From IMG/VR virus record IMGVR_UViG_3300044630_004416, positions 41,440-105,439 of that record: a stretch of 64,000 nt of DNA; one strand, given 5' to 3'. The translations under genes and the position numbers were made by a program. Shown here piece by piece: positions 38,934 through 57,589 of this stretch (positions within the stretch are counted from its first letter, which is position 1; each line of letters opens with the position of its first letter). The stretch is from a virus (Duplodnaviria; Heunggongvirae; Uroviricota; Caudoviricetes). The notes under the pieces were generated by a model. The model saw only the letters and a program-made list of their open reading frames with translations, made no database searches and was not told the DNA's origin.

Positions 38934-39009
38934 TGGTCGGTTGCGACTGCCCCAGAATCCTACAACATGGGGGCTGCCACCTGGCCAGCCCTGTTACAAT
39001 TTGAAATAT

Positions 39010-39201: not shown

Positions 39202-39321
39202 TAGAGAAACTTCCTTTCAAACTTACGAAACAACATTAGCATGAACAGCAGGGCTAGAACTCCTGACATTTACAATTTGTAATGTTTGTTTGTGGGGGGA
39301 TTGTCTCCCCCCTTGATTGTA

Positions 39322-39585
39322 TCAGATGGCAGCCTGCTTGAGTTCTTCAGTGCGGCGAGCATCTGCAATGGTAGCACCTAGGCTAACCTTCATGAGTTGT
39401 TCATCATTAGTGAGCAAATCACTCAGGAATTGTGCATAATCTGCACTTGCAGCGAAAGCATAAGCCTTATCAGGATTCGACTGATAAGTGATAACAACAT
39501 CCGTACCTTCTACAGTTACACTGTGAATGGCACTGGATTGGTCAACAGTGAATTGGCGATGAACAGGATTGATAGCAACAGTCAT
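39322..39585 (-). CDS. hypothetical small protein (87 aa), weak KTSC-like resemblance
   Basis: ORF preceded by TTGACA-17-TACATT within a hairpin cassette. Confidence 0.45.
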   Translation of the reverse strand: MTVAINPVHRQFTVDQSSAIHSVTVEGTDVVITYQSNPDKAYAFAASADYAQFLSDLLTNDEQLMKVSLGATIADARRTEELKQAAI

Positions 39586-39795
39586 GATGTTTCAGTGAAT
39601 GAACTTTAATAATGTACAGGATGGGGGCTGAGTTGTCAACCCCCTTGTGACACTATCAGAATTGGATTTCTTCTAGTGTGGGCTCCATAGATTCATCCAC
39701 AGAATCTACAGAAAGCATGTCCAGAATGGTGAGAATCTCATCACCAGTCTGACCTTTGCGAAGCATCGAAATCAGCAGTTCTTTAGACATAATAA

Positions 39796-39927
39796 TCAAT
39801 AATCAATGTTAGAGTTAATATATTCTGCAAAGAATTGTTCATTGTTGTCATTCTCTGCAGGAATCAGCATGTCATCTTCCCAGTCGAAGACTTCAGCTTC
39901 AAGTTCAGCAAAATCGAAGGTGTCCAT
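39796..39927 (-). CDS. small acidic protein (43 aa)
   Basis: MDTFDFAELEAEVFDWEDDMLIPAENDNNEQFFAEYINSNIDY. The track's longer version (39796..39981) starts at a TTG inside the promoter element (TTGACACCAGCCCC read as MTPAP). Real start taken as the internal ATG. Confidence 0.4.
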   Translation of the reverse strand: MDTFDFAELEAEVFDWEDDMLIPAENDNNEQFFAEYINSNIDY

Positions 39928-39965
39928 GGGTTGTTCAGTAGTGAACGAGTTCAGTATGGCATGGG

Positions 39966-40009
39966 TGGGGGCTGGTGTCAACCCCTGATTGATTAGAGTT
40001 GCTTATCAT
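39966..40009 (-). promoter_or_regulatory. PeSL-like cassette copy A: GC hairpin overlapping a sigma70-like promoter
   Basis: Minus strand reads GGGGTTGACACCAGCCCCCACCCATGCCATACT (TTGACA-17-CATACT). About 43 bp nearly identical to copy B. Confidence 0.5.
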
Positions 40010-41814: not shown

Positions 41815-42071
41815 TCCCGTTCAAATTAAGTTTAATGGTTAAAATGTAGTGTTTTTTGATTGGTTTTATTGGGCTTTGAGCTTGTTTTTTAGATGATTCA
41901 ATGCTTGCTTACGAGCTTTGAGCTTACCTTTACAGATACCTTTGGTTTTGTGTGGTTTGTTTGAGTGATGTTGCCAATTTGGTGTGGTCACTTGTCTTGT
42001 GTTTGAGTTGTACTCATTCTATGAGTAAAACCACCCCGATGTGGAGTGGTTTGTGTCAGTTATTTATCTGG

Positions 42072-42341
42072 TCAGAATAACTCTTTTATCATTTGCTTCA
42101 GATGCCACCATGTAGACTTTGGCTTATCCTCTTCGATTGGTTCTTCTCTTTGTTCAAAATCTTTTGCATTACGACCACAAAGAGATTCATCTTTTCTAAC
42201 CTCAATACAAATCATGTCAATTGCATATACAGTACCTTTGATGTAATCAAGTTCCTCAACATAATGTTTTTCGCAAACATGAAAAAGGCCAGGAATCAAA
42301 CGACAATGCTTACACTCTTGACAAGCAGGAATTGTGGTCAT
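42072..42341 (-). CDS. zinc-ribbon-like small protein
   Basis: 89 aa with CQECKHC...C...C cysteine pattern. Confidence 0.5.
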   Translation of the reverse strand: MTTIPACQECKHCRLIPGLFHVCEKHYVEELDYIKGTVYAIDMICIEVRKDESLCGRNAKDFEQREEPIEEDKPKSTWWHLKQMIKELF

Positions 42342-42570
42342 GTGATTTGAGTTTACTTAGTTTTGGTATAAGTGTGAAGAGTACCGAAGATTTTGATAGT
42401 CTTGGGTTTGGGTTGTTGGGAATAGGGTTTTTTGCTCATCGTGATACCTCGATTGTTTCTCGTAGTGCTTTTTGTGTTTCTCGGTGATTGTGATAATTCA
42501 TTATAATATCCATTACACAATAACCAAAGGCAAATGCTGCCATAATTGTTGTTAACATAGTTTTAATACC

Positions 42571-42987
42571 TCAGGGAGTAATCCAATCGTAACCAGAAGG
42601 TTCTACAACACTCTCAAATCCATCATATTCATCAATACGATAAGGACCAGAGACTTCTTCAATAGCAAGTTTAGCACACATTCCGTTTGCTTTGTCACCC
42701 AGTTCTTCTACAACTTGAACCAAAATAGGGTCGTGTCGAGCAACATTATAGTCACTCCAAGTTTGTTCAGAATACTTTTTATTGTAAGCAATTCGTTCTT
42801 CAATTGGTGTAGAATGCCAGGGTTCTGGTTTTTCAGGTCGTTCTTCGGGCGGAACCAACCAAACATTGAATCCCCAATTTGCATCTTCAATCCAAACTTG
42901 TTTGCCTTGAAGTTCCCAGTAACGTTGACACGCTTCACGGGACAGACCGAACCCACCGTAGCAGGCATTATAAACTACTTTTGTCAT
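42571..42987 (-). CDS. hypothetical protein (138 aa)
   Basis: ORF with balanced composition. Confidence 0.5.
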   Translation of the reverse strand: MTKVVYNACYGGFGLSREACQRYWELQGKQVWIEDANWGFNVWLVPPEERPEKPEPWHSTPIEERIAYNKKYSEQTWSDYNVARHDPILVQVVEELGDKANGMCAKLAIEEVSGPYRIDEYDGFESVVEPSGYDWITP

Positions 42988-42989
42988 AA

Positions 42990-43187
42990 TCAGTTATAAG
43001 TACAGAGTTGAGTGATGCGACCGTATTGAATACCTTCAGACCATTTGCCTCCAGCAGCAATACAGGATTGTTTGTTGGGAACAATAGAGTCGCCATTAGC
43101 AACACCCACGCCAATAGCAGCAAGAATACCAAGAATCACAAAAACAATCATCAGTTCAATGATAGTATAACCGTTGGGTTTAATCAC
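42990..43187 (-). CDS. type IV pilin-like (prepilin N-terminal cleavage/methylation motif) small protein
   Basis: MIKPNGYTIIELMIVFVILGILAAIGV matches the class III signal peptide G-[FY]-T-[LI]-I-E-L-[ML]-I-V followed by a hydrophobic helix. 65 aa. Two Cys in the C-terminal part. Confidence 0.6.
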   Translation of the reverse strand: MIKPNGYTIIELMIVFVILGILAAIGVGVANGDSIVPNKQSCIAAGGKWSEGIQYGRITQLCTYN

Positions 43188-43465
43188 AGTGCTGCAACCT
43201 CCTCCATAATGTTTTCTACATCTTGCTCATCACGATGACCGAGTACATCATCAGTGACTGGTGTATCATAACAAAGGTCATACTTATCTGCATCACCTTT
43301 GATGACTGCTACTTCATACAATCCTTCCGCAAATCCATAAGAACCAGGGAATCGTACTACACTCACTCCGTATCCATTTGGAAAGAAATGAAGTGCTTGT
43401 ACACCATCCTCAAACTTAGTAGGATTGAAGTTCAAATCAGTGAATTTCATAGTGAATACCTGCAT
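43184..43465 (-). CDS. hypothetical protein (93 aa)
   Basis: ORF overlapping the pilin-like gene start (ATGA). Confidence 0.45.
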   Translation of the reverse strand: MQVFTMKFTDLNFNPTKFEDGVQALHFFPNGYGVSVVRFPGSYGFAEGLYEVAVIKGDADKYDLCYDTPVTDDVLGHRDEQDVENIMEEVAAL

Positions 43466-43595
43466 TGTGGGTTGGTGGGTTGTTGTTTACAAAGTAAATC
43501 GTAAGATTCTATAAGTTTTTTGTCTCTTTCAATGAGTACAACATTCCATGCAATAATGATAGCAAATGCACAGAAACCAACTGCTAGATACTTTT

Positions 43596-43772
43596 TCATG
43601 CGTTGTAACCTTCAGATTTCAGAATAGCACGGCGAGCTTCATATGCCTGATATTCAGTAGCAAACTCAGCAATCTTTTGAAAATCATCTCGCCAGTACAA
43701 TCCCCAGCGAGTTGTACCATAAACTTGAACAATGCGAATCGGATTGTCGATGCCAAGAGGATAAGGTTTCAT
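43596..43772 (-). CDS. small protein (58 aa)
   Basis: Manual translation MKPYPLGIDNPIRIVQVYGTTRWGLYWRDDFQKIAEFATEYQAYEARRAILKSEGYNA. Below the track cut-off. Confidence 0.4.
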   Translation of the reverse strand: MKPYPLGIDNPIRIVQVYGTTRWGLYWRDDFQKIAEFATEYQAYEARRAILKSEGYNA

Positions 43773-44023
43773 GCTTCAATAATGCAGAAGGAGGCACAGA
43801 ACTTACGAACCCACTGAAGAGTTTGATAGTAGTTCCTGGGATTGGACATTACCATGCTAGCATTCTTTTGTGGATTGTGAGCAATAGCAACATATTGGTT
43901 GTCATCGACTTCTTCAATCCACATTTGATTCACATTACCCTCTTGCCAATCCCAACGTGATGTGGTGTAATGATACACTTCACGGGGCTTGCGGTTGGAG
44001 GTGAAAGTGAGAATGTCATTCAT
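43769..44023 (-). CDS. hypothetical protein (84 aa)
   Basis: ORF 28 nt downstream of promoter TTGACA-17-TAATAT. Confidence 0.5.
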   Translation of the reverse strand: MNDILTFTSNRKPREVYHYTTSRWDWQEGNVNQMWIEEVDDNQYVAIAHNPQKNASMVMSNPRNYYQTLQWVRKFCASFCIIEA

Positions 44024-44050
44024 GGGTGGTGTTCCCTTGATTACCTTTGT

Positions 44051-44079
44051 ATATTAGCCCACATGAGGGGGCATGTCAA
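44051..44079 (-). promoter_or_regulatory. sigma70-type promoter with embedded GC hairpin (PeSL-like)
   Basis: Minus strand reads GGTTGACATGCCCCCTCATGTGGGCTAATATACA (TTGACA-17-TAATAT). Confidence 0.55.
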
Positions 44080-44239
44080 CCTCTGACTCATTAGCTTTTT
44101 TAATCTTTGCGGAACGTTTCCGCATTTCATACTCATGGTTCCGTGTAAATGCGTAAAGAATCACTACAAGGGCACCAGCCAGTCCTGCAACAGCAGCAAT
44201 GGCGTTAAGGTCAGTGGGAAAGGTGGTGGTTTCAATCAT
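44054..44239 (-). CDS. small membrane protein
   Basis: 61 aa with hydrophobic segment AIAAVAGLAGALVVILYAF. Confidence 0.4.
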   Translation of the reverse strand: MIETTTFPTDLNAIAAVAGLAGALVVILYAFTRNHEYEMRKRSAKIKKANESEVDMPPHVG

Positions 44240-44528
44240 TGTGAATTTCCTCTAGATGGTCAAGACAAAGTGTAACATAATTTGGTTCACGTTCAATCAA
44301 CTCTCGATACTCTGCATAGATGGCATCAGCAATACGAAAGTTCTTGTGCATTGTTTTGTGTGTTTTGGCACGAATTGCACGTTGATTGAACTTCTCCATT
44401 TGTTGGAGAGCATTAGTCTCTGAGAGATAAATTGAATAATCAGTTTCTGTCATCATTACTTGGGTCTCCTTTTCCTTGGAGTGATTGAGCAAGAAGTTCA
44501 GCATACTTCTCAAGGTACGCCGTATCAT
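44232..44528 (-). CDS. hypothetical protein (98 aa)
   Basis: ORF in the operon. Confidence 0.45.
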   Translation of the reverse strand: MIRRTLRSMLNFLLNHSKEKETQVMMTETDYSIYLSETNALQQMEKFNQRAIRAKTHKTMHKNFRIADAIYAEYRELIEREPNYVTLCLDHLEEIHND

Positions 44529-44594
44529 AAGCTGCTAGGTGGTTACTTGTCAACTCTTTGTGCATGTTGTTGAGATTGTTCCAGTCTTCTCTGT

Positions 44595-45209
44595 TCATAG
44601 TTCTAGGTCAACGTATTCTAATTCACCCAAACCGATGTACTCAACACCTTGATATACAGTATGGTGATTGACATGCCAATGACCATGAATGAATAAATCT
44701 GGTTTGTGTATCTCTAGTATATTATCAAGAAATTGACGAGTTACAGATTTATCGTCATATTTCGTCATATTACACTTAGAGCATACTATGTATGTTAGGC
44801 TTTCTGGCATTTCGTGTGCCACTATCACAGATGGTTTAAGTTTCTCATATACATCGCACAGAATGAGAAACTCTTTGTATGATAGTTCTTCATTTATCCA
44901 CCAATTCAATCCTTCTGTTCGATACTGTGCATCAATAGACTTTGCACCACCAATACAGAAGATATTGTCATGTATCATTGTGCCATCAGGTATCCAGAAT
45001 GGATGCTTTTTACATACACTTGGATTGTCATGATTGCCACGAATGAACTTGTGGTCTCCTTTTTTCATGTGGTCATATGGTGGATTGGAATGACCAGAGA
45101 ATCCTACACCGAAATCACCAACTTGAATAGATGTATCGCATTCATTGATGATTTTCTTGTATCTTTTCCAATTACCATGAACATCACCAATGAAGCGAAT
45201 ATTTTTCAT
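44595..45209 (-). CDS. calcineurin-like metallophosphoesterase (Ser/Thr phosphatase family)
   Basis: Motifs GDVHG, GDFG, GNHD and GHWH in canonical order. 204 aa. Confidence 0.8.
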   Translation of the reverse strand: MKNIRFIGDVHGNWKRYKKIINECDTSIQVGDFGVGFSGHSNPPYDHMKKGDHKFIRGNHDNPSVCKKHPFWIPDGTMIHDNIFCIGGAKSIDAQYRTEGLNWWINEELSYKEFLILCDVYEKLKPSVIVAHEMPESLTYIVCSKCNMTKYDDKSVTRQFLDNILEIHKPDLFIHGHWHVNHHTVYQGVEYIGLGELEYVDLEL

Positions 45210-45532
45210 TTTTTAAGCCATTTGTAGATTAGATAGATGGCACCAATGACAAGTGCAGCAAGAATCACATATCGGAATGCCCAGATTGCCAACAGGCCAA
45301 GGACCACAGCAATTCCAGTCCAACTAATATCACCACCAGAACTAAAACTTGAGCTGTCTGAGGTTTCATAAGATGTTTTGCTGATTGGATTGCAAAATTT
45401 AACTTCTTTTGCTCCATACATCGACTTGACTTGTGCAATAGCATCTTCACGCCAAGGTCCAGGAGTTTCAATCTCAACATTCTGAAGAACATTAGATTGG
45501 GTGAGAATCAGTGCTTTCCAATAGTGTGCCAT
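45206..45532 (-). CDS. membrane-anchored hypothetical protein
   Basis: 108 aa with C-terminal transmembrane segments. Confidence 0.5.
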   Translation of the reverse strand: MAHYWKALILTQSNVLQNVEIETPGPWREDAIAQVKSMYGAKEVKFCNPISKTSYETSDSSSFSSGGDISWTGIAVVLGLLAIWAFRYVILAALVIGAIYLIYKWLKK

Positions 45533-45533
45533 G

Positions 45534-45710
45534 TTAGTGATTCACTCGATGGATGATACAACGCTTGAACTCTTGCCATTCAGTATCACTAAAATTATCG
45601 CTAGCATAAGGGATGCCAACATCGGCAGCACATTGCCTTGCAATACTTTCAGGAACAGGAGTCGATAGGAAATCATACTGAACAACTGAGGCGAGAAGAA
45701 ATGCAATCAT
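45534..45710 (-). CDS. small protein (58 aa)
   Basis: Manual translation MIAFLLASVVQYDFLSTPVPESIARQCAADVGIPYASDNFSDTEWQEFKRCIIHRVNH. ATGA overlap with the upstream gene. Confidence 0.35.
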   Translation of the reverse strand: MIAFLLASVVQYDFLSTPVPESIARQCAADVGIPYASDNFSDTEWQEFKRCIIHRVNH

Positions 45711-45931
45711 GATTCAGGTTGAAAACGATTGGACCAGAGCAACCCAAAGGTTTCTTTGAGGTTGTCCAGCATAGTGTAGCGTTGAATCAATGTGTTGTCA
45801 AGTGGTAGGTCATGCAGTCCATCATCATAGGGTGCCAGTATCTGGATTGACTCCAGAGCATGTGTGATGATGTCCATGATAAGCTCATGTTGAGACTCAG
45901 TGAGAGTCACTGTGATGTCACCTTGGTTCAT
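45707..45931 (-). CDS. hypothetical small protein
   Basis: 74-aa ORF. Confidence 0.45.
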   Translation of the reverse strand: MNQGDITVTLTESQHELIMDIITHALESIQILAPYDDGLHDLPLDNTLIQRYTMLDNLKETFGLLWSNRFQPES

Positions 45932-45933
45932 AA

Positions 45934-46206
45934 TCAGTTCTTAGTGTTAACAGTTACAAGTCCACCAAATGCAAGACGGAGACCAATCAGAATGCCCCAA
46001 ACTTGCCAGAGGGAGAGTACAGTATAATTGAATAGATTTACAAGAATCCAGTGCAGTACCCATGCAACTGGAATCATTAGAATTGCACCAATGGCAACTG
46101 CAACAATTACAATTCCAAGAATTGCAACACCAGCACCAATGATTTCTGCCCAGGTGTAATTTTTACTTGGCATAATGCGACGAAAGCGACGGGATGAGTT
46201 AGTCAT
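45934..46206 (-). CDS. small integral membrane protein
   Basis: 90 aa with two hydrophobic helices. Confidence 0.5.
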   Translation of the reverse strand: MTNSSRRFRRIMPSKNYTWAEIIGAGVAILGIVIVAVAIGAILMIPVAWVLHWILVNLFNYTVLSLWQVWGILIGLRLAFGGLVTVNTKN

Positions 46207-46212
46207 AGTTAA

Positions 46213-46587
46213 TTAGGAAGGAATTTCACAAATTGCAGGAGTATAATCATAGCAAATCCATTCATTATCTTTAGTGAAAATATAGCTATACTCTTCACTA
46301 TTATGAATATACTCTGTAATATCTTCATCAATACGAGGAGAACAATTATCACCACGCATTCTATAAGTCAGAACAATAGGATTACTTAGTTTTCTATTGT
46401 TCCAATCAGTAGATGATTCAAGGCAAGAAATGTCTCCTCTACGAATCAATGCGTGAACTTTTGCACGAGTATTATATTTAGATTTTAGCTTTTTGCCCAA
46501 CCATTCAGGATAACCATCCCAATGATGATATACTGATTTCACAGAACCATTTTTGAGTTCAATGCCAATGCGAGAGCGAGTTGCCAT
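46213..46587 (-). CDS. hypothetical protein (124 aa)
   Basis: ORF. Confidence 0.5.
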   Translation of the reverse strand: MATRSRIGIELKNGSVKSVYHHWDGYPEWLGKKLKSKYNTRAKVHALIRRGDISCLESSTDWNNRKLSNPIVLTYRMRGDNCSPRIDEDITEYIHNSEEYSYIFTKDNEWICYDYTPAICEIPS

Positions 46588-46662
46588 TTCAATAGGGGGT
46601 GAATGTGTTGGGCGAGTTGTCTCTCACCCATGAACGTAATATAAGATGGATGGTCTGGGATG

Positions 46663-46914
46663 TCAATACCATTGTGCCAGTCGTTCAGCCGCACGTTCCC
46701 TGGCTGCTGCACGACGGTCTGCCTTGACTTGCTCAGCATACTGGACAACGATGCCTTCCAGATTCTTGGGCATGTAGGCTCCCAGACCAGTGACAGGGGT
46801 GATAGTCATGCCCCTGCCGCTTCCAGGGCCGCCTCCAACGGCTACAGAGCCCTTTACGCCATCTGCACCGTTGCCGAGGTTGCCAATTGCTTTGTGTTGA
46901 TTGTGGAGTGCCAT
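46663..46914 (-). CDS. Gly-rich small protein in a local GC-rich patch (83 aa)
   Basis: GNLGNGADGVKGSVAVGGGPGSGRG. About 55% GC with G/C-ending codons. Directly downstream of the helicase gene. Confidence 0.45.
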   Translation of the reverse strand: MALHNQHKAIGNLGNGADGVKGSVAVGGGPGSGRGMTITPVTGLGAYMPKNLEGIVVQYAEQVKADRRAAARERAAERLAQWY

Positions 46915-46923
46915 AGTGAGAAA

Positions 46924-48222
46924 TCAGTCAACGTAATACTCAGGAGGGATGCCCTGCCTGAAAACAAAGTCTACCACACTTTGGAGCCGTTGCTGGGTGT
47001 TCTTACCATAATTTTTGTGAACAGGAACCGTGACAAACCCATGAGACTTGCGATAAGACATGTAATCTCCAGGGGTCAGGCGACCCTCAGCCATATCCTT
47101 AGCATCCTCACGGTCCACACGAATGACACGACCAATAGTTTGACACATTTCGATAACATTCAAATTTCGCATCAAAACACAGTGAGTCAGACCAGGACAG
47201 TTGATACCTTCACTGAGAATAGAATAATGAAACAATACAAACTTCTTGTGCTTGTTCAATCCCCACTGAGTCATAGTATCAAAGAATACTTCACGACTCA
47301 CTTTCTTGTCATTAACATATGCACCTTCTTTAGATGTGATGTGAAGAATATCATAACCACGTTGTTTGAATTGATGCATCACATCAGTACGAAACAACAT
47401 CTGACACAATACTTTGGTACTAGGTGCAGCGACAAGAAGCTTTTGTGCTTTACTATCATCCAGATTGTCTAGAATATCCAATAGAGTCTTGGCATCATGC
47501 TTAGCAGCATTATCTTTCTCACGCACACCATCAATTTCATGGACTTGCACCATGGGAGGAATGATGCTACCATTCTCGATTAACTCAGGTGCAGGAACAT
47601 TCTCGATAACTTGTCCAAACACAATAGAGTTATTCATGCCACGACCTTTAGGATTCTGAGACAATTTAGGTGTGGCAGTGAAATAGTATGCAGAGTCTGC
47701 ATGTTGAGACATCATTGCAGTAGAATAAAAGAAGTCTCGCTTACAGGCATTGTGAGCCTCATCAAAGTAGACTGTATCAATGTGTATTCCACTGTCAATA
47801 ATACGATGAAGAGAATGATAAGTAGTAAAAAGTAATTGGTGTTCATTGATTTGTTTAACCATGTTGTGAAACATGGTGATATGGTCAGGATTGGTAGAAG
47901 AAAAATGTTTAGTCTCTCCAGAGTGAACGTGAGCAACTATAACATTCTTGATTTCTTGTGTAAACTCTGCACATAGTTGATTCGCAAGAAGAATGCGAGG
48001 TGCAACAACAAGTGCAGTGAATGGCTTGGTTGATTCAGATAACCTACGAATCAGGTCACGAATCATAATCAGAGTTTTGCCGCCACCAGTAGGAACATAC
48101 ACCTGGCCCATGCGAACCAGCTCCATCTTGGTGAGACTGCGGCTTTGATGGGGGCGAAGCTTCATGGTCAAAACAGCGATGGGTCTACCATACCACGGCA
48201 GACCCAGGCTGTCAACCATCAC
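46924..48222 (-). CDS. SF2 DEAH-box helicase, UvsW-like core
   Basis: Motif I VPTGGGKT, Ia VVAPRILLANQL, II DEAH, III FTATP, VI QTIGRVIRV. 432 aa. Start overlaps the upstream 515-aa gene (ATGA). Confidence 0.75.
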   Translation of the reverse strand: MMVDSLGLPWYGRPIAVLTMKLRPHQSRSLTKMELVRMGQVYVPTGGGKTLIMIRDLIRRLSESTKPFTALVVAPRILLANQLCAEFTQEIKNVIVAHVHSGETKHFSSTNPDHITMFHNMVKQINEHQLLFTTYHSLHRIIDSGIHIDTVYFDEAHNACKRDFFYSTAMMSQHADSAYYFTATPKLSQNPKGRGMNNSIVFGQVIENVPAPELIENGSIIPPMVQVHEIDGVREKDNAAKHDAKTLLDILDNLDDSKAQKLLVAAPSTKVLCQMLFRTDVMHQFKQRGYDILHITSKEGAYVNDKKVSREVFFDTMTQWGLNKHKKFVLFHYSILSEGINCPGLTHCVLMRNLNVIEMCQTIGRVIRVDREDAKDMAEGRLTPGDYMSYRKSHGFVTVPVHKNYGKNTQQRLQSVVDFVFRQGIPPEYYVD

Positions 48223-49766
48223 ATCATAATAATGTGTGGAGCAGAAGTTACTGATACTTTTACTTCTTTATTTTTGTCAGTGAGTATTTTTTTACTCAAT
48301 GCATCTATTAATACATTTGATGCGGTTATTCCACCAAATGAACGTTTTGTAATTGCTCCAAATATAGTGAAAAATATCTGTTTCTTTAGATATAATCTAA
48401 ACTCTCTACCACCAGCAAGCCAGAAATATGACATCTGCAATGAAACATAATGATTAGATAAAATCTTTTCTGTTCTGATTATATCAATATTTGCAGTATA
48501 TCTTCCTTCTTCTCTGATTGATTTTACACATTCTCTTAAGTAACTATCAAGCAGTGCTACATTACCAATTTCTTCAAAATATGGTTCTACTACTTTCTTT
48601 AGTTCTTTATATGAATGAAATTGTCTTTTCTTTAAAAATGTTAATGCTTTTCTTCCTTCTGGTGTTGTTATATCGGATTCTTTTTGTACATCAGATACTT
48701 TTAAAAATGCAGCAACACGTTTTCTTGCTAGCATTTCCATTATTGTATTATAACCTGCATATGAAGATATCATTGGTTCTAATGTTTTTGGTGACATTCC
48801 AGCAACCCATGGAGTCTTTGCTGCAGCACCCTTTTTAATATCAAATTTACCATTATAACTTCCAGAACCACCAGATGGTAATGGTTCTAGATTAAATCTG
48901 TTATCTTCAAACTGTTTATTTATTTTTGTATAGTTAAAATCAAATACTAATTTCCAACTAGATGAATCTAAGTTTTCTCTGATGTTCCATAGATTATATT
49001 TGACATCAATTACTTCATCAATTAATCGTTGCACTTCGGCTGGTCTTTTATCTTTAAGAAGAAGCACAAATTGTGAATATGGGTCAATATGTTTACTATC
49101 ATATTTTCCTAATTTTCTTATATTACCAGCTATTTTGACAGTCGGCACACTTGATTTTGTAGATAACATTTTATGAGACACACCAATTAAATCTTGAGAT
49201 TTAAAAAGTTTTGCCATCATATGTTCATATGTTTTATCTTTATTTTTGTGATAGTTAATTAATATTTCTTGGTCACTTTTAACGTTTAAAATATTATCTT
49301 TGAATTGCTTTTCAATATCATTTTTTTCTGCATAATTTACTATAAAAAAGTCCACTGGTGATAGAATCTGTGCATCACCTTTTATATCAAATACTTGTTT
49401 TATTTTCTTTAAACAAGAATCTTTAACTGTTTTTGTGAATGAACTACTTTGTGTGTAAATTCTATAATTCTTTCTTTTGGATATAATTCCAGAATGATAT
49501 AATTTTTCAATTTGTTTGTATGCAACTACAACATGAGCGTGTGATGCATTTTTTGTATAACTATATGATGTTTTAATTGCATTATAATCAAAACCATATT
49601 CTAAGTAAGATTTATACTTTGACTTTACATCATTAACCTTCATATCATTAAATAAATTTTCCCACAATTTAAAATGTTCTGGGTCTCCTTTTCTTTCTGG
49701 TCTAGTATCCATGAAATAAGCAAAAGCTAAGCACATTAAATTTTCTTTTGCTGTAGTTGCTGCCAT
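48219..49766 (-). CDS. very AT-rich Lys/Asn/Ile-rich hypothetical protein (515 aa), ORFan coupled to helicase
   Basis: About 27% GC against about 42% in flanking genes. No motif I recognise. Translationally coupled to the helicase. Confidence 0.55.
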   Translation of the reverse strand: MAATTAKENLMCLAFAYFMDTRPERKGDPEHFKLWENLFNDMKVNDVKSKYKSYLEYGFDYNAIKTSYSYTKNASHAHVVVAYKQIEKLYHSGIISKRKNYRIYTQSSSFTKTVKDSCLKKIKQVFDIKGDAQILSPVDFFIVNYAEKNDIEKQFKDNILNVKSDQEILINYHKNKDKTYEHMMAKLFKSQDLIGVSHKMLSTKSSVPTVKIAGNIRKLGKYDSKHIDPYSQFVLLLKDKRPAEVQRLIDEVIDVKYNLWNIRENLDSSSWKLVFDFNYTKINKQFEDNRFNLEPLPSGGSGSYNGKFDIKKGAAAKTPWVAGMSPKTLEPMISSYAGYNTIMEMLARKRVAAFLKVSDVQKESDITTPEGRKALTFLKKRQFHSYKELKKVVEPYFEEIGNVALLDSYLRECVKSIREEGRYTANIDIIRTEKILSNHYVSLQMSYFWLAGGREFRLYLKKQIFFTIFGAITKRSFGGITASNVLIDALSKKILTDKNKEVKVSVTSAPHIIMM

Positions 49767-50058: not shown

Positions 50059-50874
50059 TCAGTTAGCGAGTCCGCCAGGCAGGAAGTCCATCTTAGCACC
50101 GTTGATGATAACCATTTTCTGGATGCTACCATTCTCAAACGCTGCTTTCAGGATTTCGTTACGCTGATACTCCAGAGATTGAGTAGTCACAGTAGAAGCA
50201 AGTGCTTTGTTTTCTTCTGCTTTCAGTTGAGCAGTACGAGTCTTAACTTCCTGTTCTTTGTTAGCAGATTGAGCAGCAACCACACGGTTTACAGAAGCAA
50301 CCAGTTGGTCAGGCAGGTCTGCCTTCACAACCACCACAGATTCAATATCAATCTTACCAGCGAGGTTGTTCTTCTCCAGAGACAGATTCAGATTCTGTTT
50401 GATAGTCTCTTGGATTTTATCCAGACTGCTGTTCACTTCCAGAGCAGGGTATTCGTCAACCGATTGGTTCACAGCAGACGTAATCAGACGCTTGATGAAA
50501 CTCGCCATCAGTTCAATCTGACCGTTCTCACTTACACCGTGGTTAGTAATATCGTAACCAGTGTAGAAGTTATAGAGAGAAGTAGGAGCGAGACTGTAGG
50601 TAACAACCACATCCATATCTTTCATGATGGTGTTGTCTTTAGTCTTGGGAGTCAGGTCACTCGATTGTACCGTAATCTTACGAGTGTTGAAGACTTTGAT
50701 ACTACCAAAGCCATCATATTTAATGCCAGGAGTCAGCACTTCATTCTTCACCTGACCATCAAATCCCACATAGAGACCATTTTCACCAGTGTTGATGGTA
50801 GTAAACTGCCCCGCAGTCAGAATCAGAGCAACGAGAACACCACCAGCGCCAAGAACGATTTTTCCAGTAGACAT
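50059..50874 (-). CDS. SPFH/band-7 (prohibitin/HflC-like) membrane protein
   Basis: N-terminal TM (IVLGAGGVLVALILTAG). Then NTGENGLYVGFDGQVKNEVLTPGIKY...TKDNTIMKDMDVVVTYSL matches the SPFH core pattern. Coiled-coil C-terminus. 271 aa. Confidence 0.6.
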   Translation of the reverse strand: MSTGKIVLGAGGVLVALILTAGQFTTINTGENGLYVGFDGQVKNEVLTPGIKYDGFGSIKVFNTRKITVQSSDLTPKTKDNTIMKDMDVVVTYSLAPTSLYNFYTGYDITNHGVSENGQIELMASFIKRLITSAVNQSVDEYPALEVNSSLDKIQETIKQNLNLSLEKNNLAGKIDIESVVVVKADLPDQLVASVNRVVAAQSANKEQEVKTRTAQLKAEENKALASTVTTQSLEYQRNEILKAAFENGSIQKMVIINGAKMDFLPGGLAN

Positions 50875-52557: not shown

Positions 52558-52807
52558 AGTAATCAGACAACAAATTAAAACTCAACCCAACCTTACCAAC
52601 TTGAAAATCTGCTCCAAAAAGATGAGAAGAAGTAAAAAATGAGAGTAGGATGTGCAATCCACCATTACAATGAATTAAACGAGTTGGGTATTCATAATGA
52701 ACCCAGAGTAATGAACGATTGTTGATGATACCAAACTGCCAAGTGTAGTCAGTATCACCATCGTCCCACACTTTTTTATCGTATTGGAAGAGTTTCATCA
52801 CATCCAC
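52526..52807 (-). CDS. hypothetical protein (93 aa)
   Basis: ORF. Confidence 0.45.
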   Translation of the reverse strand: MDVMKLFQYDKKVWDDGDTDYTWQFGIINNRSLLWVHYEYPTRLIHCNGGLHILLSFFTSSHLFGADFQVGKVGLSFNLLSDYFEGWNYHGNV

Positions 52808-53025
52808 TCCCTCAAATCAACAATTTCATACCACTCATACTCCGAACCTCTTATACTATGCTTTGAAACCATTTCATCACCGAACTTCTTGCTATGATAC
52901 TTTGGAACTTTAACACTAATCACTTCTTCCTTTGCTTCTTCATAAGTTTCAAAGCAGGCAATCCAATCACCAGTTCCATAAGAAGGATAATACTGGTCCC
53001 CAGCAATCAAAAGATAAGGTTTCAT
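52798..53025 (-). CDS. hypothetical small protein
   Basis: 75-aa ORF. Confidence 0.45.
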   Translation of the reverse strand: MKPYLLIAGDQYYPSYGTGDWIACFETYEEAKEEVISVKVPKYHSKKFGDEMVSKHSIRGSEYEWYEIVDLREWM

Positions 53026-53165
53026 TTCCTCACCTCACAAGCAGGAGTCATATCAACTAAAGTTGCGGCAAGTTTCAATCCACCAAGCACCGCAGTTGGA
53101 GCAATAAAAATCAACAACAGAATGCCAAGTGGAATGGCAACATATTCCTCAAAAAAACTTTTCAT
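53022..53165 (-). CDS. small membrane peptide (47 aa)
   Basis: Manual translation MKSFFEEYVAIPLGILLLIFIAPTAVLGGLKLAATLVDMTPACEVRK. ATGA overlaps on both sides. Confidence 0.35.
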   Translation of the reverse strand: MKSFFEEYVAIPLGILLLIFIAPTAVLGGLKLAATLVDMTPACEVRK

Positions 53166-53344
53166 CGTGGCACTCCACCATTATAAGGTTTGTTGTAAGT
53201 AATATACTGAGTTTTCAACTCAACATCAAAGTAATCAATATCAGGGTATTTTTCCCTGACATAGGTTTTACATTCCTCACGGGTGGAAAATCCACAGAGG
53301 ATTTTACCTTCGTAGATTGCGGTTTCAATTGCTTCAATCATCAC
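53162..53344 (-). CDS. small Cys-containing protein, paralog 1
   Basis: MMIEAIETAIYEGKILCGFSTREECKTYVREKYPDIDYFDVELKTQY is paralogous to the gene at 58914..59090. Confidence 0.5.
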   Translation of the reverse strand: MMIEAIETAIYEGKILCGFSTREECKTYVREKYPDIDYFDVELKTQYITYNKPYNGGVPR

Positions 53345-53622
53345 AATAACTCCATTTTACAATTACCATTTACATCATAAACCACTTTGACTTGAAACTC
53401 TTGGGTTGAGTTTGAATTCCAAAAAGCATCTTTGAACTCTTCAGTTTCTTTCTCTGGATACTTGGGAAAATAAAATCCACTTTCATCAAGTTCATTACAT
53501 TCAATATCACCCAGATAATGAAGGTTCAGGTATCGGGCAAGTTGTTGCTTTTGTTGATAGGTAAGTTGAATTTTGACAGTTGTGATGAATTCGTTTGATA
53601 CTGGGAGTTCTTCGTTAATCAT
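53341..53622 (-). CDS. hypothetical protein (93 aa, start re-assigned)
   Basis: The track ORF 53341..53700 overlaps the upstream gene by 82 nt. The internal ATG at 53622 gives an ATGA overlap and MINEELPVSNEF... Confidence 0.45.
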   Translation of the reverse strand: MINEELPVSNEFITTVKIQLTYQQKQQLARYLNLHYLGDIECNELDESGFYFPKYPEKETEEFKDAFWNSNSTQEFQVKVVYDVNGNCKMELL

Positions 53623-53879
53623 TCTACAATTAAACAATAACGACATTGGAAAGCAAAAGTTTCTTTTTGCCAAGTTTTCTTCACACCATTTTCTTCCCAA
53701 GAATACACAACTTCATACCAAGGGTCTGTGCTCCCATAAGAATTGAGACCTTCAACGGTCACATAACCTTTAGAACCATCTGCCCGTGCCCAACGAGAAC
53801 CAACTTGGATTTCGTGTGGTTTGAAGAAATGACGGACAACTGCTTTACGTCCATCTATGATTTCAGTTTCGTAGTTCAT
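53619..53879 (-). CDS. hypothetical protein (86 aa)
   Basis: ORF. Confidence 0.45.
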   Translation of the reverse strand: MNYETEIIDGRKAVVRHFFKPHEIQVGSRWARADGSKGYVTVEGLNSYGSTDPWYEVVYSWEENGVKKTWQKETFAFQCRYCLIVE

Positions 53880-54931
53880 CGGTCTTTATGCTTCAGTAGA
53901 TACGAGTTGGCAATTGCCTTGAAAGTAAAAGCACTCCAAAAAGATTTGAATACCAAACCTTCACGTTTTGTTTGAGGATTCAGTGATGGACCTTCAGCAA
54001 ACTCCAGAAGTTCATCAATAGTGCTGAGGTTCTTAGTAAGTTCAAAACATGGTTCAATAATAGGAACATGCTCAATATCAGCACCAGCTCGTTTTAGTTG
54101 GTCAAGAACAGCATAGCGTTCAAATGGAGTCATATAACGACTTTCAGTGATACTATAAATGTCAAACAGATAGAACCGTTGACCTTTGAGTTTCTCTGGA
54201 TTGCCCTGAATACCCTCACCAATCAATTCGCCTTGAATGGCATATTCTTCACCTTTTTCTTTAGAGAGTTCAAGAAGTGGTTCAATGATATTCTGCTCTC
54301 GTGCTGCTTTCCAGAAACTATTACCCTCAGTTTCCTTCAGGTCAATATTCCTGGAACACACACCAACCTCACCATCTTTAATGTAGATAGTGGTGCTACT
54401 GCCATCAAGTTTAGTAGTCACTTCATAAGTATTATCTTTATAAGTTTCAAAGATGTCTTTACGAAGATTCTGACAACGTTCTTGGTCAGTTTTAGGAATG
54501 AAGTGTGGGAAGTTACCCTTCATTGTGCCCTGAAGTTGAGCAGGGATAGGTGGTTCCCACTTCTGAATATTCAAAATATGAGATACATCTTCACCTACAG
54601 AAGCATCATTAGCAATAGAACCAAGACAATTCAGTGGCAGTAGCAGCCCCTGACTTACTTGACCACGAAGTTTAACAGTACGAAGACGTTCACCCTTCAC
54701 ACCATTATATTCACGAGGTTCTTTCCCACTGCTGAGAAATGGAGCGAGTTCATGAGGAACCCAACTATCAATCTCAAAATATACAGCAGTATCTCCAATC
54801 TTATATTCATCTTTTTTGACCACTACAGGCCAACCACCATCAACGATGGCACACTCAATAGCATCAGCACCTTCAATAGGCTTGATGTATGTGATAGGTC
54901 GAATCGAGGCAAGTTTACGCACAGTGTTCAT
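53876..54931 (-). CDS. RNA ligase, nucleotidyltransferase KxDG type (DraRnl/Rnl2-superfamily-like)
   Basis: Motif I TTKLDGSS, motif IV REGLVFK, motif V KAIANSYLLKHKD. N-terminal beta-rich extension. 351 aa. Last gene of the RNA-repair cassette. Confidence 0.55.
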   Translation of the reverse strand: MNTVRKLASIRPITYIKPIEGADAIECAIVDGGWPVVVKKDEYKIGDTAVYFEIDSWVPHELAPFLSSGKEPREYNGVKGERLRTVKLRGQVSQGLLLPLNCLGSIANDASVGEDVSHILNIQKWEPPIPAQLQGTMKGNFPHFIPKTDQERCQNLRKDIFETYKDNTYEVTTKLDGSSTTIYIKDGEVGVCSRNIDLKETEGNSFWKAAREQNIIEPLLELSKEKGEEYAIQGELIGEGIQGNPEKLKGQRFYLFDIYSITESRYMTPFERYAVLDQLKRAGADIEHVPIIEPCFELTKNLSTIDELLEFAEGPSLNPQTKREGLVFKSFWSAFTFKAIANSYLLKHKDR

Positions 54932-55404
54932 CAGAAGTCTCCTTTGCCCTGGGCAACGTCAAAAGTAAATATACCACGGTCCTGCCACATTGTCAAGACC
55001 CTCTTGCGGTCATCAAAAACTGCAAAGATTTGATACTGTTCTTCAATTATATCAGCAATCTCTGCTTTTACAATAGCATCATCACGATGGTCCTTATACT
55101 TTCTCATATAAAGAGCATTATAATCATCAGTAAATATATTATGTTTTTCCAGCCATTCTACAGTCACATCACGATAATCATCAGAACGACCACTCACAAA
55201 GAAAACAGGAAAGAAATACTTCAATGCATGAAACATTGCAAGCACTTGCTTTACAGGTTTGTCTTGACTAATTCCTTTGTTCCATGCATCCCAATTTCTT
55301 GGCTTGGTTGCAACAAATTGACGACGATGTTTTACATCACAAAGAGTACCATCAAGGTCAAAAATGATGCACTTTTCTTTAGGAGTATTCGTAGAGGAAT
55401 CCAT
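54931..55404 (-). CDS. HAD-family polynucleotide 3'-phosphatase (T4 Pnkp C-terminal domain homolog, stand-alone)
   Basis: IIFDLDGTLCD, FVSGRSDDY and FDDRKRVLTMWQDRGIFTFDVAQGKGDF align with T4 Pnk VIFDVDGTLAK, VVSGRESGT and [26 protein letters not shown]. Confidence 0.75.
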   Translation of the reverse strand: MDSSTNTPKEKCIIFDLDGTLCDVKHRRQFVATKPRNWDAWNKGISQDKPVKQVLAMFHALKYFFPVFFVSGRSDDYRDVTVEWLEKHNIFTDDYNALYMRKYKDHRDDAIVKAEIADIIEEQYQIFAVFDDRKRVLTMWQDRGIFTFDVAQGKGDF

Positions 55405-55756
55405 GATTAGTAGTATAATGAATGTGAGTGATACCTGCTTCTTTTAGTGCAAGTTCACAAATAGGACATGGGCGAGCCATTCGTAGTTTACCCTGTGGAT
55501 TGACCCTAGCAACAATCACAGTGTCAACTTCTTCACGACACTTAACAAGTGCTGCAATCTCTGCATGAAGGTAAATCTTTTCTTTCAGTCCTACACGCTC
55601 TGCAAACTTTGCTTGAAGAGGATGCGATTTAGTTTCAAGATTAGTTGCACTTACAATTACTTTATTTTTGTTAAGCAAAAGTGCTCCCACTTGTTTTTTA
55701 GAAGGAGAACTCTTTGCAGTTGCAATTGCTTGGTCAAATACCGAGTCAGAAATCAT
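55379..55756 (-). CDS. CDA-fold zinc deaminase (cytidine/dCMP/tRNA-adenosine deaminase-like), 125 aa
   Basis: LHAEIAAL followed by PCPICE gives the H-A-E...P-C-x2-C zinc-binding signature. Inserted between the kinase and phosphatase ORFs. Confidence 0.6.
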   Translation of the reverse strand: MISDSVFDQAIATAKSSPSKKQVGALLLNKNKVIVSATNLETKSHPLQAKFAERVGLKEKIYLHAEIAALVKCREEVDTVIVARVNPQGKLRMARPCPICELALKEAGITHIHYTTNHGFLYEYS

Positions 55757-56256
55757 CAGGCCACCTGCAGCTTAAGATGAGTGCCATCATGTGTCATAAT
55801 GACATCAAAACCTTCTTCTTCAGTTGGCATTTCAAATTGAAGGAACATGCGATGCAGAACAGAACGTGGAATAAATTTATTCGCTCTTTGCGAATTACGA
55901 ATAAGAGCATCTTCAAGTGTAATAGGAAGAATCACTACAGTCTTGGTATAAGTATCTGGAATCTTCTTCAGCTTCTGCCTACGAGATTTTTTAGATAGAT
56001 TGGTTTGGTCCCAGATGATTGACTTACCTCGTTGAATGGCAAGGTCTAGGTCTTGATACATTTTTGTGGTAGCATCCTTGATTGCTTCATCAAAGACTTC
56101 ATTGTAAGTTTTACCTACAGATGCAGCATATTCTTCGATGTAGTTATCTGTAGATAGTATCACATACTCATCAAAAACATCAGAGTTTTCAGTTCCCCTG
56201 CGAATGTAAGTAGATTTACCTGCACAAGGAATACCACACATCATAATCAGTTCCAT
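55756..56256 (-). CDS. polynucleotide 5'-kinase (T4 Pnkp N-terminal domain homolog, stand-alone)
   Basis: P-loop GIPCAGKST, SIIWDQTNLSKKSRRQKL and RNSQRANKFIPRSVLHRMF align with T4 Pnk GCPGSGKST, VIISDTNLNPERRLAW and RNSKRGTKAVPIDVLRSMY. Confidence 0.75.
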   Translation of the reverse strand: MELIMMCGIPCAGKSTYIRRGTENSDVFDEYVILSTDNYIEEYAASVGKTYNEVFDEAIKDATTKMYQDLDLAIQRGKSIIWDQTNLSKKSRRQKLKKIPDTYTKTVVILPITLEDALIRNSQRANKFIPRSVLHRMFLQFEMPTEEEGFDVIMTHDGTHLKLQVA

Positions 56257-57410
56257 GAAATACCTCCGAACATCCAGCGAGAATCGTTGAGTTTAGTTTG
56301 AGAAGACAAAGACTTCTCGATTGAATCAGTAAGTAGTTGCTTACATTCTTTACCTTGTTTCATGCCAAACATAAATGGACGATGAATAGGTAAAAGCATC
56401 TTGTTTACAAATTCAACGGCAAACTCCTTTTTGTCTGGATACATCTTATCACCACCTTCAAAGATTTTGGTGAGGTCAGAGGACACTTCATCAACTGCAC
56501 ACCAGAACTTCTGTTGGAAATCTTTGAGTCGCTGGGCATCCTCAGGAGTGAGCAGAGGAATCATATCATCTACAGAATCATTGAGAATAACTTGAATGAT
56601 ATTCTTTTCTGAGTTGATTTGTTCTTTTGACCGATGACGGAGAATATATTCATCTGCTTTTACTTTAACCATATGACCACTTTCAAAGCGAATAACTACC
56701 CCTTCTCCGTCATCCCACAAACGAATAGCATCTAACATGCTATCATCATACCAATGCCCACTAGCAAATGATTTAACTACAGGAATATTATAGTGAGTCG
56801 CTAGTTCTACCATATTAAAATATAGCAGATAATTACCTTTTATAGTATTGCGAATACCAGTGAGAATTAGTTGGTCTTCTGGATAGTCAACTACAATACG
56901 ATTTTTTCGTGAACACCATTCAAAGATAGGTGTCATCCCACCATCAAACATCGCATGAATGAAAGTAGAATATTCTGGCTTATCTGCAATGAAATACTCT
57001 GCATTCATTGCAACATCAGTGATGCCTGCTTTCGTACCTAGTCGAAAACCTTCTGGAGTTGGAATTGGACGAATCATGGAACCATCTAGCTTTTCCAGAA
57101 TTACATGAGATTGAGTCCAATCAATCTCTTCCTGATGAGTTTCTGCTCGCTCACCAACATTGAAGAACTTATGATATGGACGAGAGATAAGATTACCAGT
57201 AGCAGTATCAAATATCATACCACGACATTCACGGCGAATCTTCATATTATAATGACTACGCTCACGAACAAGTGAGAAAGTCTCTTCAAATGCTACCATA
57301 TAATTGATAACAGTATACCAATCTTTTTGCATCACTTTGAATTCTTGCCAATCCTCAATGTGAGGAATGACATCATCAATATGATTAATTTCTGGAAAGT
57401 CGTAGTTCAC
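56247..57410 (-). CDS. RNA ligase 1 (T4 RnlA-like)
   Basis: RRECRGMIFDTATGNLISRPYHKFFNVGE aligns with T4 Rnl1 [32 protein letters not shown]. Motif I KLDGSM. 387 aa (T4 Rnl1 is 374 aa). Confidence 0.7.
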   Translation of the reverse strand: MNYDFPEINHIDDVIPHIEDWQEFKVMQKDWYTVINYMVAFEETFSLVRERSHYNMKIRRECRGMIFDTATGNLISRPYHKFFNVGERAETHQEEIDWTQSHVILEKLDGSMIRPIPTPEGFRLGTKAGITDVAMNAEYFIADKPEYSTFIHAMFDGGMTPIFEWCSRKNRIVVDYPEDQLILTGIRNTIKGNYLLYFNMVELATHYNIPVVKSFASGHWYDDSMLDAIRLWDDGEGVVIRFESGHMVKVKADEYILRHRSKEQINSEKNIIQVILNDSVDDMIPLLTPEDAQRLKDFQQKFWCAVDEVSSDLTKIFEGGDKMYPDKKEFAVEFVNKMLLPIHRPFMFGMKQGKECKQLLTDSIEKSLSSQTKLNDSRWMFGGISWN

Positions 57411-57589
57411 TGATAATCTTCCTGTTCAAAGGTAAAGTATTCGTAAATTTGAGACATCACAGCATCCTCAATGTGCTCGATGATGGCACCTTCAGTTGGA
57501 TTCTCAACATGTTTGTGTGCCCGTGCATAACCACGACGAACACCTTCTTCAATTGCCATTTCTAAAATAACACGGGTTTTAGGTTTCAT
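57407..57589 (-). CDS. hypothetical small protein
   Basis: 60-aa ORF upstream of the RNA-repair cassette. Confidence 0.45.
   Translation of the reverse strand: MKPKTRVILEMAIEEGVRRGYARAHKHVENPTEGAIIEHIEDAVMSQIYEYFTFEQEDYQ

Follow-up and report, generated by a model that had tools for sequence, protein, structure and literature searches.

Why should a gene for a small zinc deaminase lie exactly between a polynucleotide kinase gene and a polynucleotide phosphatase gene, with a different RNA ligase gene on either side? This arrangement is found in a 64,000-nucleotide stretch of viral DNA, hereafter the window (positions 41,440 to 105,439 of IMG/VR record IMGVR_UViG_3300044630_004416), where five overlapping minus-strand open reading frames (ORFs) extend from 57410 to 53876 and encode an Rnl1-type ligase, a kinase, a deaminase, a phosphatase and an Rnl5 ligase. 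Considering gene content, family membership, conserved catalytic residues and comparative gene arrangements, which are the observations made here, we think it probable that the cassette is a tRNA/RNA healing-and-sealing set that houses an independently acting deaminase. Its genes, in positions of the window, are:

56247 to 57410, minus strand: Rnl1-type ATP-dependent RNA ligase, 387 amino acids, with a GTG start, motif I EKLDGS and a match to PF09511
55756 to 56256, minus strand: candidate stand-alone P-loop polynucleotide 5'-kinase, 166 amino acids, matching AAA_33 and the N-terminal half of phrog_505
55379 to 55756, minus strand: zinc deaminase of the cytidine deaminase (CDA) fold, 125 amino acids, with H64-A-E66, P96-C97-x-x-C100 and a match to PF00383
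54931 to 55404, minus strand: predicted stand-alone Pnkp-type HAD 3'-phosphatase, 157 amino acids, matching PF25109 (HAD_PNKP)
53876 to 54931, minus strand: Rnl5-family nick-sealing RNA ligase, 351 amino acids, with an OB domain, a nucleotidyltransferase domain and motif I TKLDGS

An initial annotation, made from the sequence of the window, had described five adjacent, translationally coupled minus-strand genes, and we recovered all of them at these coordinates, with junction overlaps read from the DNA of 10 nucleotides (Rnl1/kinase), 1 (kinase/deaminase), 26 (deaminase/phosphatase) and 1 (phosphatase/Rnl5); the claim that the deaminase gene overlaps both the kinase stop and the phosphatase start is thus correct. 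The same block, with the same gene lengths, is present in at least eight independent metagenome contigs (ENA, JGI, NCBI and Logan) and is therefore not an assembly artefact. Small ORFs flank the cassette with 4-nucleotide overlaps at each end, and 12 of the 15 consecutive junctions called in this region overlap. Therefore, the coupling is real yet not specific to the cassette, and we rejected it as a sign of functional linkage, for which it is uninformative.

Profile and BLAST searches bore out the families that had been proposed for the five proteins: an Rnl1 ligase, a Pnk-like kinase, a CDA-fold deaminase, a Pnkp-type HAD phosphatase and a second, different ligase. The first ligase matches PF09511 (RNA_lig_T4_1) with 95.7 bits against a cut-off of 28.3 (E 5e-27), phrog_562 (1.9e-69) and the T4 Rnl1 structures 2c5u/5tt6 (E 3e-16), with its EKLDGS aligned to T4 TKEDGS. 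The T4_Rnl1_C domain (PF20819), which confers tRNA specificity in Rnl1, gives a weak signal in the window protein (21.7 bits, below the cut-off of 27) and scores above the cut-off (34.7 bits) in the homologue from cyanophage B23, which is 55% identical to the window ligase. Since the protein does not reach the cut-off of the NCBIfam equivalog TIGR02308 (124 vs 242 bits), it is, judged by its sequence, a member of the Rnl1 family and not a T4 RnlA equivalog by the TIGR02308 standard.

The kinase and the phosphatase jointly tile the T4-type Pnkp profile phrog_505, the former on its N-terminal half (positions 2-146 of 295, 7e-15) and the latter on positions 157-294 (3e-34), and their catalytic residues are mostly kept. 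The predicted correspondence to the two domains of T4 Pnk was reproduced by pairwise BLASTP, in which PseT residues 3-140 are covered by the kinase, at 24% identity and E 9e-6, and residues 154-299 by the phosphatase, at 28% identity and E 5e-11. The kinase also matches AAA_33 (3e-19), and in an alignment of 12 sequences including T4, residues G8, P10, G13, K14 and S15 of its P-loop GIPCAGKST, which include the catalytic Lys and Ser (T4 K15/S16), are invariant, as is D37, the equivalent of the T4 general base D35; R120 and R124, aligned to T4 R122 and R126 of the RNSxR segment, are nearly so. The phosphatase covers positions 2-141 of the 143 in PF25109 (HAD_PNKP; 100.9 bits vs a cut-off of 27.6, 9e-29), and D16, D18, G19, T20, S71, G72, R73, K113, D131, D132 and R133 are invariant, T4 included, so that the motifs DxDGT (T4 D165/D167), SGR, Lys and DDR (T4 D277/D278) are all kept. 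Among solved structures, its best match is Pnkp1 of Capnocytophaga gingivalis (4xrp, 2e-12); T4 Pnk (1ltq) is matched at 5e-6. As an observation on the annotated homologues, the match to the B23 kinase gp130 (locus L003, 5983-6458) is divided between two frames, 6001-6342 and 6342-6458, and the protein as annotated ends in an aberrant C-terminus, which indicates a frameshift through a sequencing error or a pseudogene.

These family assignments bear on the possibility that the three middle genes serve nucleotide metabolism, as a nucleoside or nucleotide kinase, a dCMP/cytidine deaminase and a 5'-nucleotidase that would reshape pyrimidine pools, with the ligases merely adjacent. AAA_33/KTI12/Zeta-type kinases and HAD phosphatases do include enzymes that act on nucleotides, the phosphatase weakly matches Acid_phosphat_B and the e(P4) 5'-nucleotidase model, the profile of the deaminase is nearest to dCMP deaminases, and in T4 the deaminase gene cd lies near pseT. 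Against this stand the 101 bits of the phosphatase on a Pnkp-specific HAD model with every T4 Pnkp phosphatase residue kept, the joint tiling of the T4 Pnkp profile (Pnkp1 being the best structure for the phosphatase and a weak one, at 4e-3 and behind PSTK, for the kinase), and the near-constant position of the kinase beside Rnl1 across distant phages. We therefore regard a nucleotide-metabolism trio as very unlikely.

The initial annotation had further presented the locus as a T4 Pnkp split at its domain junction by a deaminase, as a special event. In T4, Pnkp is a single 301-amino-acid tetrameric protein, whereas here a 166-amino-acid kinase and a 157-amino-acid phosphatase are separate ORFs in different frames, with the deaminase gene in between. 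We rejected, nevertheless, a unique fission of T4 Pnkp by deaminase insertion, given that deaminase-free relatives (loci L033-L041, L017, L018 and Ruegeria phage RpAliso) are already split and that stand-alone phosphatases dominate the best matches. A HMMER search with the phosphatase over 1.84 billion cluster representatives retrieved 4024 proteins at E <= 1e-10; among the best 150 of these, about 120 are of stand-alone size (130-190 amino acids), and about 10 look like fused kinase-phosphatases, to judge from their length and the C-terminal position of the match. The best PHROGs match of the phosphatase, phrog_415 (1.7e-39), is a stand-alone phosphatase family already present in that database. 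In a survey of jumbo phages (PMC7824862), the PNK-type HAD is said to be "usually fused" to the kinase; set against the roughly 120 of 150 stand-alone proteins, the split form is therefore, as far as sequence databases tell, under-described rather than rare. That the T4 phosphatase domain has been solved alone (5uj0, a 145-amino-acid chain) also fits the view that a free-standing phosphatase can be a viable protein. Taken together, Rnl1, kinase and phosphatase encoded by separate genes are, on comparative sequence evidence, most likely the ancestral conserved core in this phage group and not the product of a recent fission of a T4-type fused Pnkp. The novelty attached to the split is lowered in consequence, as the same split is the common ancestral arrangement in related phages.

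What fills the position between kinase and phosphatase was read from IMG/VR scans that yielded 17 kinase loci and 18 phosphatase loci, annotated by tblastn and ORF calling. All 18 phosphatase loci have Rnl1 upstream; of the 17 kinase loci, 15 have it immediately before the kinase or no more than about 0.9 kb from it. The order Rnl1-kinase-deaminase-phosphatase occurs in nine contigs, eight with the spacing of the window and a ninth (L013/L031) with an additional ORF. Compared with the window, Rnl1 is 80-85% identical in these contigs, the kinase 78-84% and the phosphatase 83-95%; the deaminase reaches 92-96%, except in L013/L031, where it is 77% identical. More distant contigs carry Rnl1, kinase and phosphatase with no deaminase (L033-L041, L017, L018). 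In L040/41, the kinase and phosphatase genes are 3 nucleotides apart; in L033/34/37 they overlap in different frames, with an Rnl5 gene 0.8 kb further in L037; and in L035/36, L017/18 and L038/39 an ORF of 77-87 amino acids stands between them, with Rnl5 also downstream in L035/36. Among isolates, Rnl1 and kinase are adjacent in cyanophage B23 and in Ruegeria phage RpAliso, the latter with a phosphatase-only gene 2.4 kb upstream. Thus, the conserved unit is Rnl1-kinase-(variable slot)-phosphatase with split genes, and the deaminase is, by this comparison of gene orders, one of several alternative occupants of the slot. The architecture that had been called unusual is real and recurrent; the separation of kinase and phosphatase in it is common and, on this comparison, ancestral, and the insertion of the deaminase is confined to one lineage and probably incidental.

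Several further features of these loci deserve mention. The 77-87-amino-acid slot ORF is itself conserved (…HHFEY…IVKIFADRGYEISH…AGWMCLG…; L035 5756-5989, L017 6416-6679). At the deaminase-free junctions of L033 (5544-6053 / 5995-6465) and L037 (5526-6056 / 5992-6468), the kinase ORF extends about 55 nucleotides beyond the phosphatase start in another frame. The extra ORF of L031 (5035-5928, equal to L059 4278-5171) is GIY-YIG-like, lies between deaminase and phosphatase and, from its sequence, is probably a homing endonuclease; the divergence of the L031 deaminase (77% vs 92-96%) is what gene conversion driven by an endonuclease would be expected to produce. In L022, the gene between Rnl1 and kinase encodes a calcineurin-like phosphoesterase (5371-5988), with the HAD phosphatase gene at a distance of 3 kb.

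The deaminase itself belongs to the CDA fold, with HAE in helix 2 and PCxxC (PCPIC) in helix 3, a PF00383 match above the cut-off (39.6 bits, 5e-10) and a deaminase fold. Its best profile-to-PDB matches are dCMP deaminases (2hvv, 3.5e-6; 4p9c, 2.4e-5), a single-sequence search against the PDB gave no match, and the cut-off of the tetrameric cytidine deaminase model TIGR01354 was not reached (26.6 vs 113.65 bits). Structural scores fail to separate dCMP deaminase, TadA and CDA, and the automatic names of its homologues are inconsistent (TadA, cytidine deaminase or dCMP deaminase). Similarity to T4 Cd is weak (pairwise E 4e-4). The phage dCMP deaminases T4 Cd and cyanophage S-TIM5 dCD (4p9c) share the CDA fold, HAE and PCxxC with the window protein, which differs in being shorter: it ends about nine residues past strand 4 in a short hairpin and lacks the helix-4 segment.

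Could this deaminase be an integral step of repair, deaminating a wobble or anticodon-loop A or C of a broken or resealed tRNA? It would then be the base-editing part of phage RNA repair, allowing the repaired tRNA to escape re-cleavage or to regain decoding or a lost modification, a role for which we see a low probability. In its favour, the window and no fewer than 17 related contigs have the gene exactly at the kinase/phosphatase position, with starts coupled, and no other gene of the cassette is conserved as strongly within this lineage. The wider distribution of the deaminase argues for another view. The family is abundant in aquatic viral data (484 homologues), and isolates encode copies that are 81% (Sf-CH8), 72% (S-T4), 58% (ACG-2014f) and 52% (S-SCSM1) identical, with more distant copies in jumbo phages and Streptomyces phages. 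Across 80 IMG/VR deaminase loci, the deaminase is preceded by a helicase in 27 and by the kinase in 9, and it is followed by a 2OG-Fe(II) oxygenase in 25 and by the phosphatase in 8; the other neighbours on either side are diverse. About 70 of the 80 represent the helicase-deaminase-2OG oxygenase order or other non-repair contexts. In Sf-CH8 and S-T4, the deaminase gene lies between a helicase (or denV) gene and a 2OG-Fe(II) oxygenase gene. The deaminase-bearing isolates named above lack the kinase: the only Synechococcus phage records matching it are B23, B3 and BUCT-ZZ01, and none of the named deaminase carriers is among the three. Conversely, the Rnl1-kinase-phosphatase core exists without the deaminase in many phages. 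No sequence divergence separates the two contexts, as repair and non-repair deaminases share the catalytic residues and all 40 invariant columns. The GIY-YIG-like ORF of L031 parts the deaminase from the phosphatase, and the overlap of the two genes is therefore dispensable. The TadA C-terminal helix serves tRNA binding, and the window protein has no helix of this type. Finally, the cassette-bearing contigs form one closely related lineage, so their common gene order amounts to a single event. On this balance, an integral repair step is unlikely.

The proposal that the deaminase edits the repaired RNA had adjacency as its sole basis and is not upheld, in view of the orthologues with 58-81% identity in non-repair contexts of kinase-free cyanophages. 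The other option offered at the outset, a nucleotide-metabolism enzyme captured at a domain boundary, fits the data better. Most likely, the deaminase is encoded by a mobile gene, strongly conserved in cyanophages, which entered the variable junction of kinase and phosphatase in a single sub-lineage. By homology and context, its most probable role resembles that of T4 cd: it would act alone, on a pyrimidine nucleotide or nucleoside in free form, and not on repaired RNA.

Four observations weigh against a healing-and-sealing set with an independent deaminase. First, T4 R38, the arginine that contacts the acceptor nucleotide phosphate, is replaced by Ile40 in the window kinase and its clade. Second, the best solved structure for the kinase is PSTK (4e-7), which also outscores Pnk in NCBIfam, with the kinase domain of Pnkp1 (4xrp) a weak match; PSTK is a tRNA-dependent kinase and not a Pnk. 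Third, within the lineage the deaminase is more conserved than its cassette neighbours (92-96% vs 78-95% identity). Fourth, in L115 (IMGVR_UViG_3300047557_001710, 3971-6784), a divergent phage, a 140-amino-acid deaminase with 53% identity lies directly upstream of an Rnl1-kinase-metallophosphoesterase set, an independent arrangement that also counts towards a repair role. If RNA editing were the true role, the two independent juxtapositions with Rnl1 and kinase, of the window type and of the L115 type, would reflect function; this second, differently ordered juxtaposition is, at the level of gene order, more than a pure random-passenger origin predicts, and it keeps a functional link alive.

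The 26-nucleotide overlap between deaminase and phosphatase has a parallel outside the cassette. In the window (55379-55404), in Sf-CH8 (L004, 5350-5375) and in S-T4 (L005, about 5371), the conserved 3' end of the deaminase gene holds the start codon of the next gene in another frame. In the window this next gene is that of the HAD phosphatase; in Sf-CH8 and S-T4 it encodes a 2OG-Fe(II) oxygenase. An overlap of 26 nucleotides is common to the window and Sf-CH8, but their ATGs are 3 nucleotides apart and the downstream genes unrelated. It may reflect coupling or a recombination joint. As a conserved recombination joint, it is suggestive at most, because the ATGs are offset by 3 nucleotides and the L031 phosphatase retains its MDSSTNT N-terminus although it has no overlap with the deaminase.

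The last gene of the cassette had been described as a second KxDG RNA ligase; KxDG ligase is correct, and the description proved too general, as the protein is a close member of the Rnl5 family (NgrRnl/DraRnl). It aligns over its full length with NgrRnl (5cot, E 6e-105), passes the NCBIfam equivalog TIGR02306 (194.2 bits vs 151.15) and contains PF21189 (OB, residues 7-100) and PF09414 (168-330 of 351 residues), with no C-terminal appendage. NgrRnl of Naegleria and DraRnl of Deinococcus have the same layout of OB and nucleotidyltransferase domains, and the window enzyme differs in being encoded by a phage, directly after end-healing genes. The family seals duplex nicks with a 3'-OH RNA strand (PMC4408790, PMC7261155), and its physiological substrate and role are uncharted (PMC4408790, PMC5397189); the placement of Rnl1 and Rnl5 around and directly after end-healing genes hints at a physiological context for it. 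The Rnl5 ligase is 76% identical to S-CREM1 gp113, which is solitary there, and its gene follows the phosphatase in the closest metagenome relatives and in none of the nine IMG/VR relatives. In L024, L026 and L031, the gene after the phosphatase is a homologue of the window ORF at 52557-52174; therefore, a segment of about 2.4 kb with Rnl5 and small ORFs is additional in the window and in the relatives nearest to it. This segment (window 52558-54931, Rnl5 and about six small ORFs) varies among close relatives: in L125, Rnl5 is directly followed by a 121-amino-acid ORF, and L124 has Rnl5 and one small ORF.

The presence of Rnl5 raises the alternative that the cassette mainly serves DNA or RNA-DNA hybrid ends, such as ribonucleotide-3' nicks or 3'-phosphate/5'-OH DNA breaks made by host nucleases, and is no tRNA counter-measure. 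T4-type Pnkp also processes DNA ends, a helicase gene lies in the wider region, and relatives carry denV. The nick-sealing activity of Rnl5 and the radiosensitivity of Deinococcus upon loss of DraRnl (PMC4408790, PMC5397189) point in the same direction. The conserved core, however, has Rnl1, with Rnl5 a late and variable addition; T4 Rnl1 and PseT are the textbook tRNA-repair pair (T4 record annotation); and the Rnl1 C-terminal domain, weak in the window protein, is above the cut-off in the B23 homologue. We consider service to DNA or hybrid ends distinctly unlikely.

Returning to RNA healing and sealing, we can outline how the set would work, with enzymatic activities, substrates and the independence of the deaminase taken from homology. 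By analogy with T4 PseT and Rnl1, a host RNase such as an anticodon nuclease would cut tRNA or other RNA, leaving 2',3'-cyclic or 3'-phosphate and 5'-OH ends. The stand-alone HAD phosphatase would clear the 3'- or 2',3'-cyclic phosphate, the stand-alone P-loop kinase would phosphorylate the 5'-OH, and the Rnl1-type ligase would seal the single-stranded or loop break. Rnl5, acquired separately with the insertion of about 2.4 kb, would seal 3'-OH RNA nicks in duplexes.

In T4, the tRNA repair carried out by PseT and RnlA is a counter-measure to the PrrC anticodon nuclease. The cassette shares the families of that system, and the KxDG of Rnl1, the P-loop, Asp and Arg of the kinase and the DxDGT, SGR, K and DD of the phosphatase are common to both; it differs in its low identity to PseT (24-28%), in the loss of Arg38 and in having an Rnl5 ligase in place of T4 Rnl2. 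The contrast that had been drawn between this compact block and dispersed rnlA, rnlB and pseT genes does not hold for rnlA and pseT, since in the T4 record rnlA, alc, pseT.3-pseT.1, pseT, cd.5-cd.1 and cd are consecutive on one strand from 137.5 to 132.1 kb, within 5.3 kb. T4 cd lies 1.3 kb downstream of pseT, whereas the small deaminase is inside the block here; a deaminase close to pseT therefore has precedent. C. gingivalis Pnkp1 (4xrp/4xru, from a Pnkp1-Rnl-Hen1 complex) is likewise encoded beside an RNA ligase gene, but it is a fused, bacterial protein of 312 amino acids that works with Hen1 in 2'-O-methylation, while the window enzymes are split and no Hen1 was seen with them. The jumbo-phage survey lists several ATP-dependent RNA ligases together with polynucleotide kinase and HAD, calcineurin-like or HD phosphatases, and reads them as counter-defence against tRNA cleavage (Iyer et al. 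2021, PMC7824862). Relative to those sets, the cassette is distinguished by its embedded deaminase and by belonging to a cyanophage clade in which kinase and phosphatase are, as a rule, separate genes. No description of the cassette emerged from literature searches on cyanophage, RNA ligase, polynucleotide kinase and deaminase in combination, the RNA-repair survey of Burroughs and Aravind (2016) lying outside the search.

If the healing-and-sealing reading is right, RNA-repair counter-defence would extend to T4-like cyanophages, the textbook fused T4 Pnkp would be a minority architecture, and stand-alone kinase and phosphatase beside Rnl1 would form a modular core whose junction genes are swapped in and out. 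Such phages would offer a natural system for asking whether the Pnkp kinase and phosphatase need physical linkage. The split also matters for annotation, as stand-alone HAD genes are widely labelled 'polynucleotide kinase'. For the abundant 125-amino-acid deaminase, placement in a repair cassette is occasional, and the comparative data favour independent action.

The window includes genes for terminase, tail sheath, baseplate wedge and helicase and has patchy 81-86% nucleotide identity to Synechococcus phages S-CREM1, S-SRM01 and S-PM2; it is therefore assigned to a T4-like cyanomyovirus, and the source phage is, from these matches, Kyanoviridae-like. In a megablast of the cassette against isolated phages, the Rnl5 gene alone was matched (S-CREM1, 81.5%). 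The cassette sits in a run of short, tightly packed minus-strand genes, a variable small-gene region. Across the window, no tRNA genes and no Rfam families were found. Two further genes of the window are linked to the cassette or its relatives:

57407 to 57589, minus strand: conserved 60-amino-acid ORF, with a 4-nucleotide overlap with the Rnl1 GTG start
44595 to 45209, minus strand: calcineurin-like metallophosphoesterase, 204 amino acids (PF00149, 1.4e-9), a low-confidence candidate for an accessory end-healing role

All nine close IMG/VR contigs have a homologue of the 60-amino-acid ORF immediately before Rnl1; elsewhere, homologues lie beyond the phosphatase in L033/L037 and close to Rnl5 in S-CREM1. 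The metallophosphoesterase gene lies 9.7 kb from the cassette, and its product shares 41% identity (E 5e-50) with the enzyme between Rnl1 and kinase in L022; it may serve as a further end-healing enzyme, such as a cyclic phosphodiesterase. Unrelated ORFs with calcineurin-like motifs, recognized by eye, flank repair genes in L115 (6089-6784) and L035 (7830-8630).

A promoter and terminator scan of 52-59.5 kb stayed at chance level (27 promoters vs 24.8 expected, 7 terminators vs 3.9). Two promoter-like sites matching at 11 of 12 positions, at 57665-57636 and at 54996-54968 (the latter sigma-70-like, minus strand, within the phosphatase gene and just upstream of Rnl5), are leads only. Elsewhere in the window, two giant minus-strand ORFs of 2089 and 3375 amino acids (12390-18659 and 20457-30584, about 30% GC) lie beside the baseplate wedge gene and presumably encode structural or fibre proteins. 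GC-rich islands at 36000-40000 (up to 47%) and 42000-48000 (about 40%) stand out from the 28-32% of the neighbouring structural region, and the first holds a DUF7227/GP88-like protein (38627-37959, E 3e-88) overlapped by a long antisense ORF. Between the cassette region and the helicase are a 515-amino-acid ORF with no family match (48219-49766, minus strand) and an SPFH/Band 7 protein (50059-50874, minus strand), whose gene is also kept near the Rnl5 gene in S-CREM1 and in metagenome contigs.

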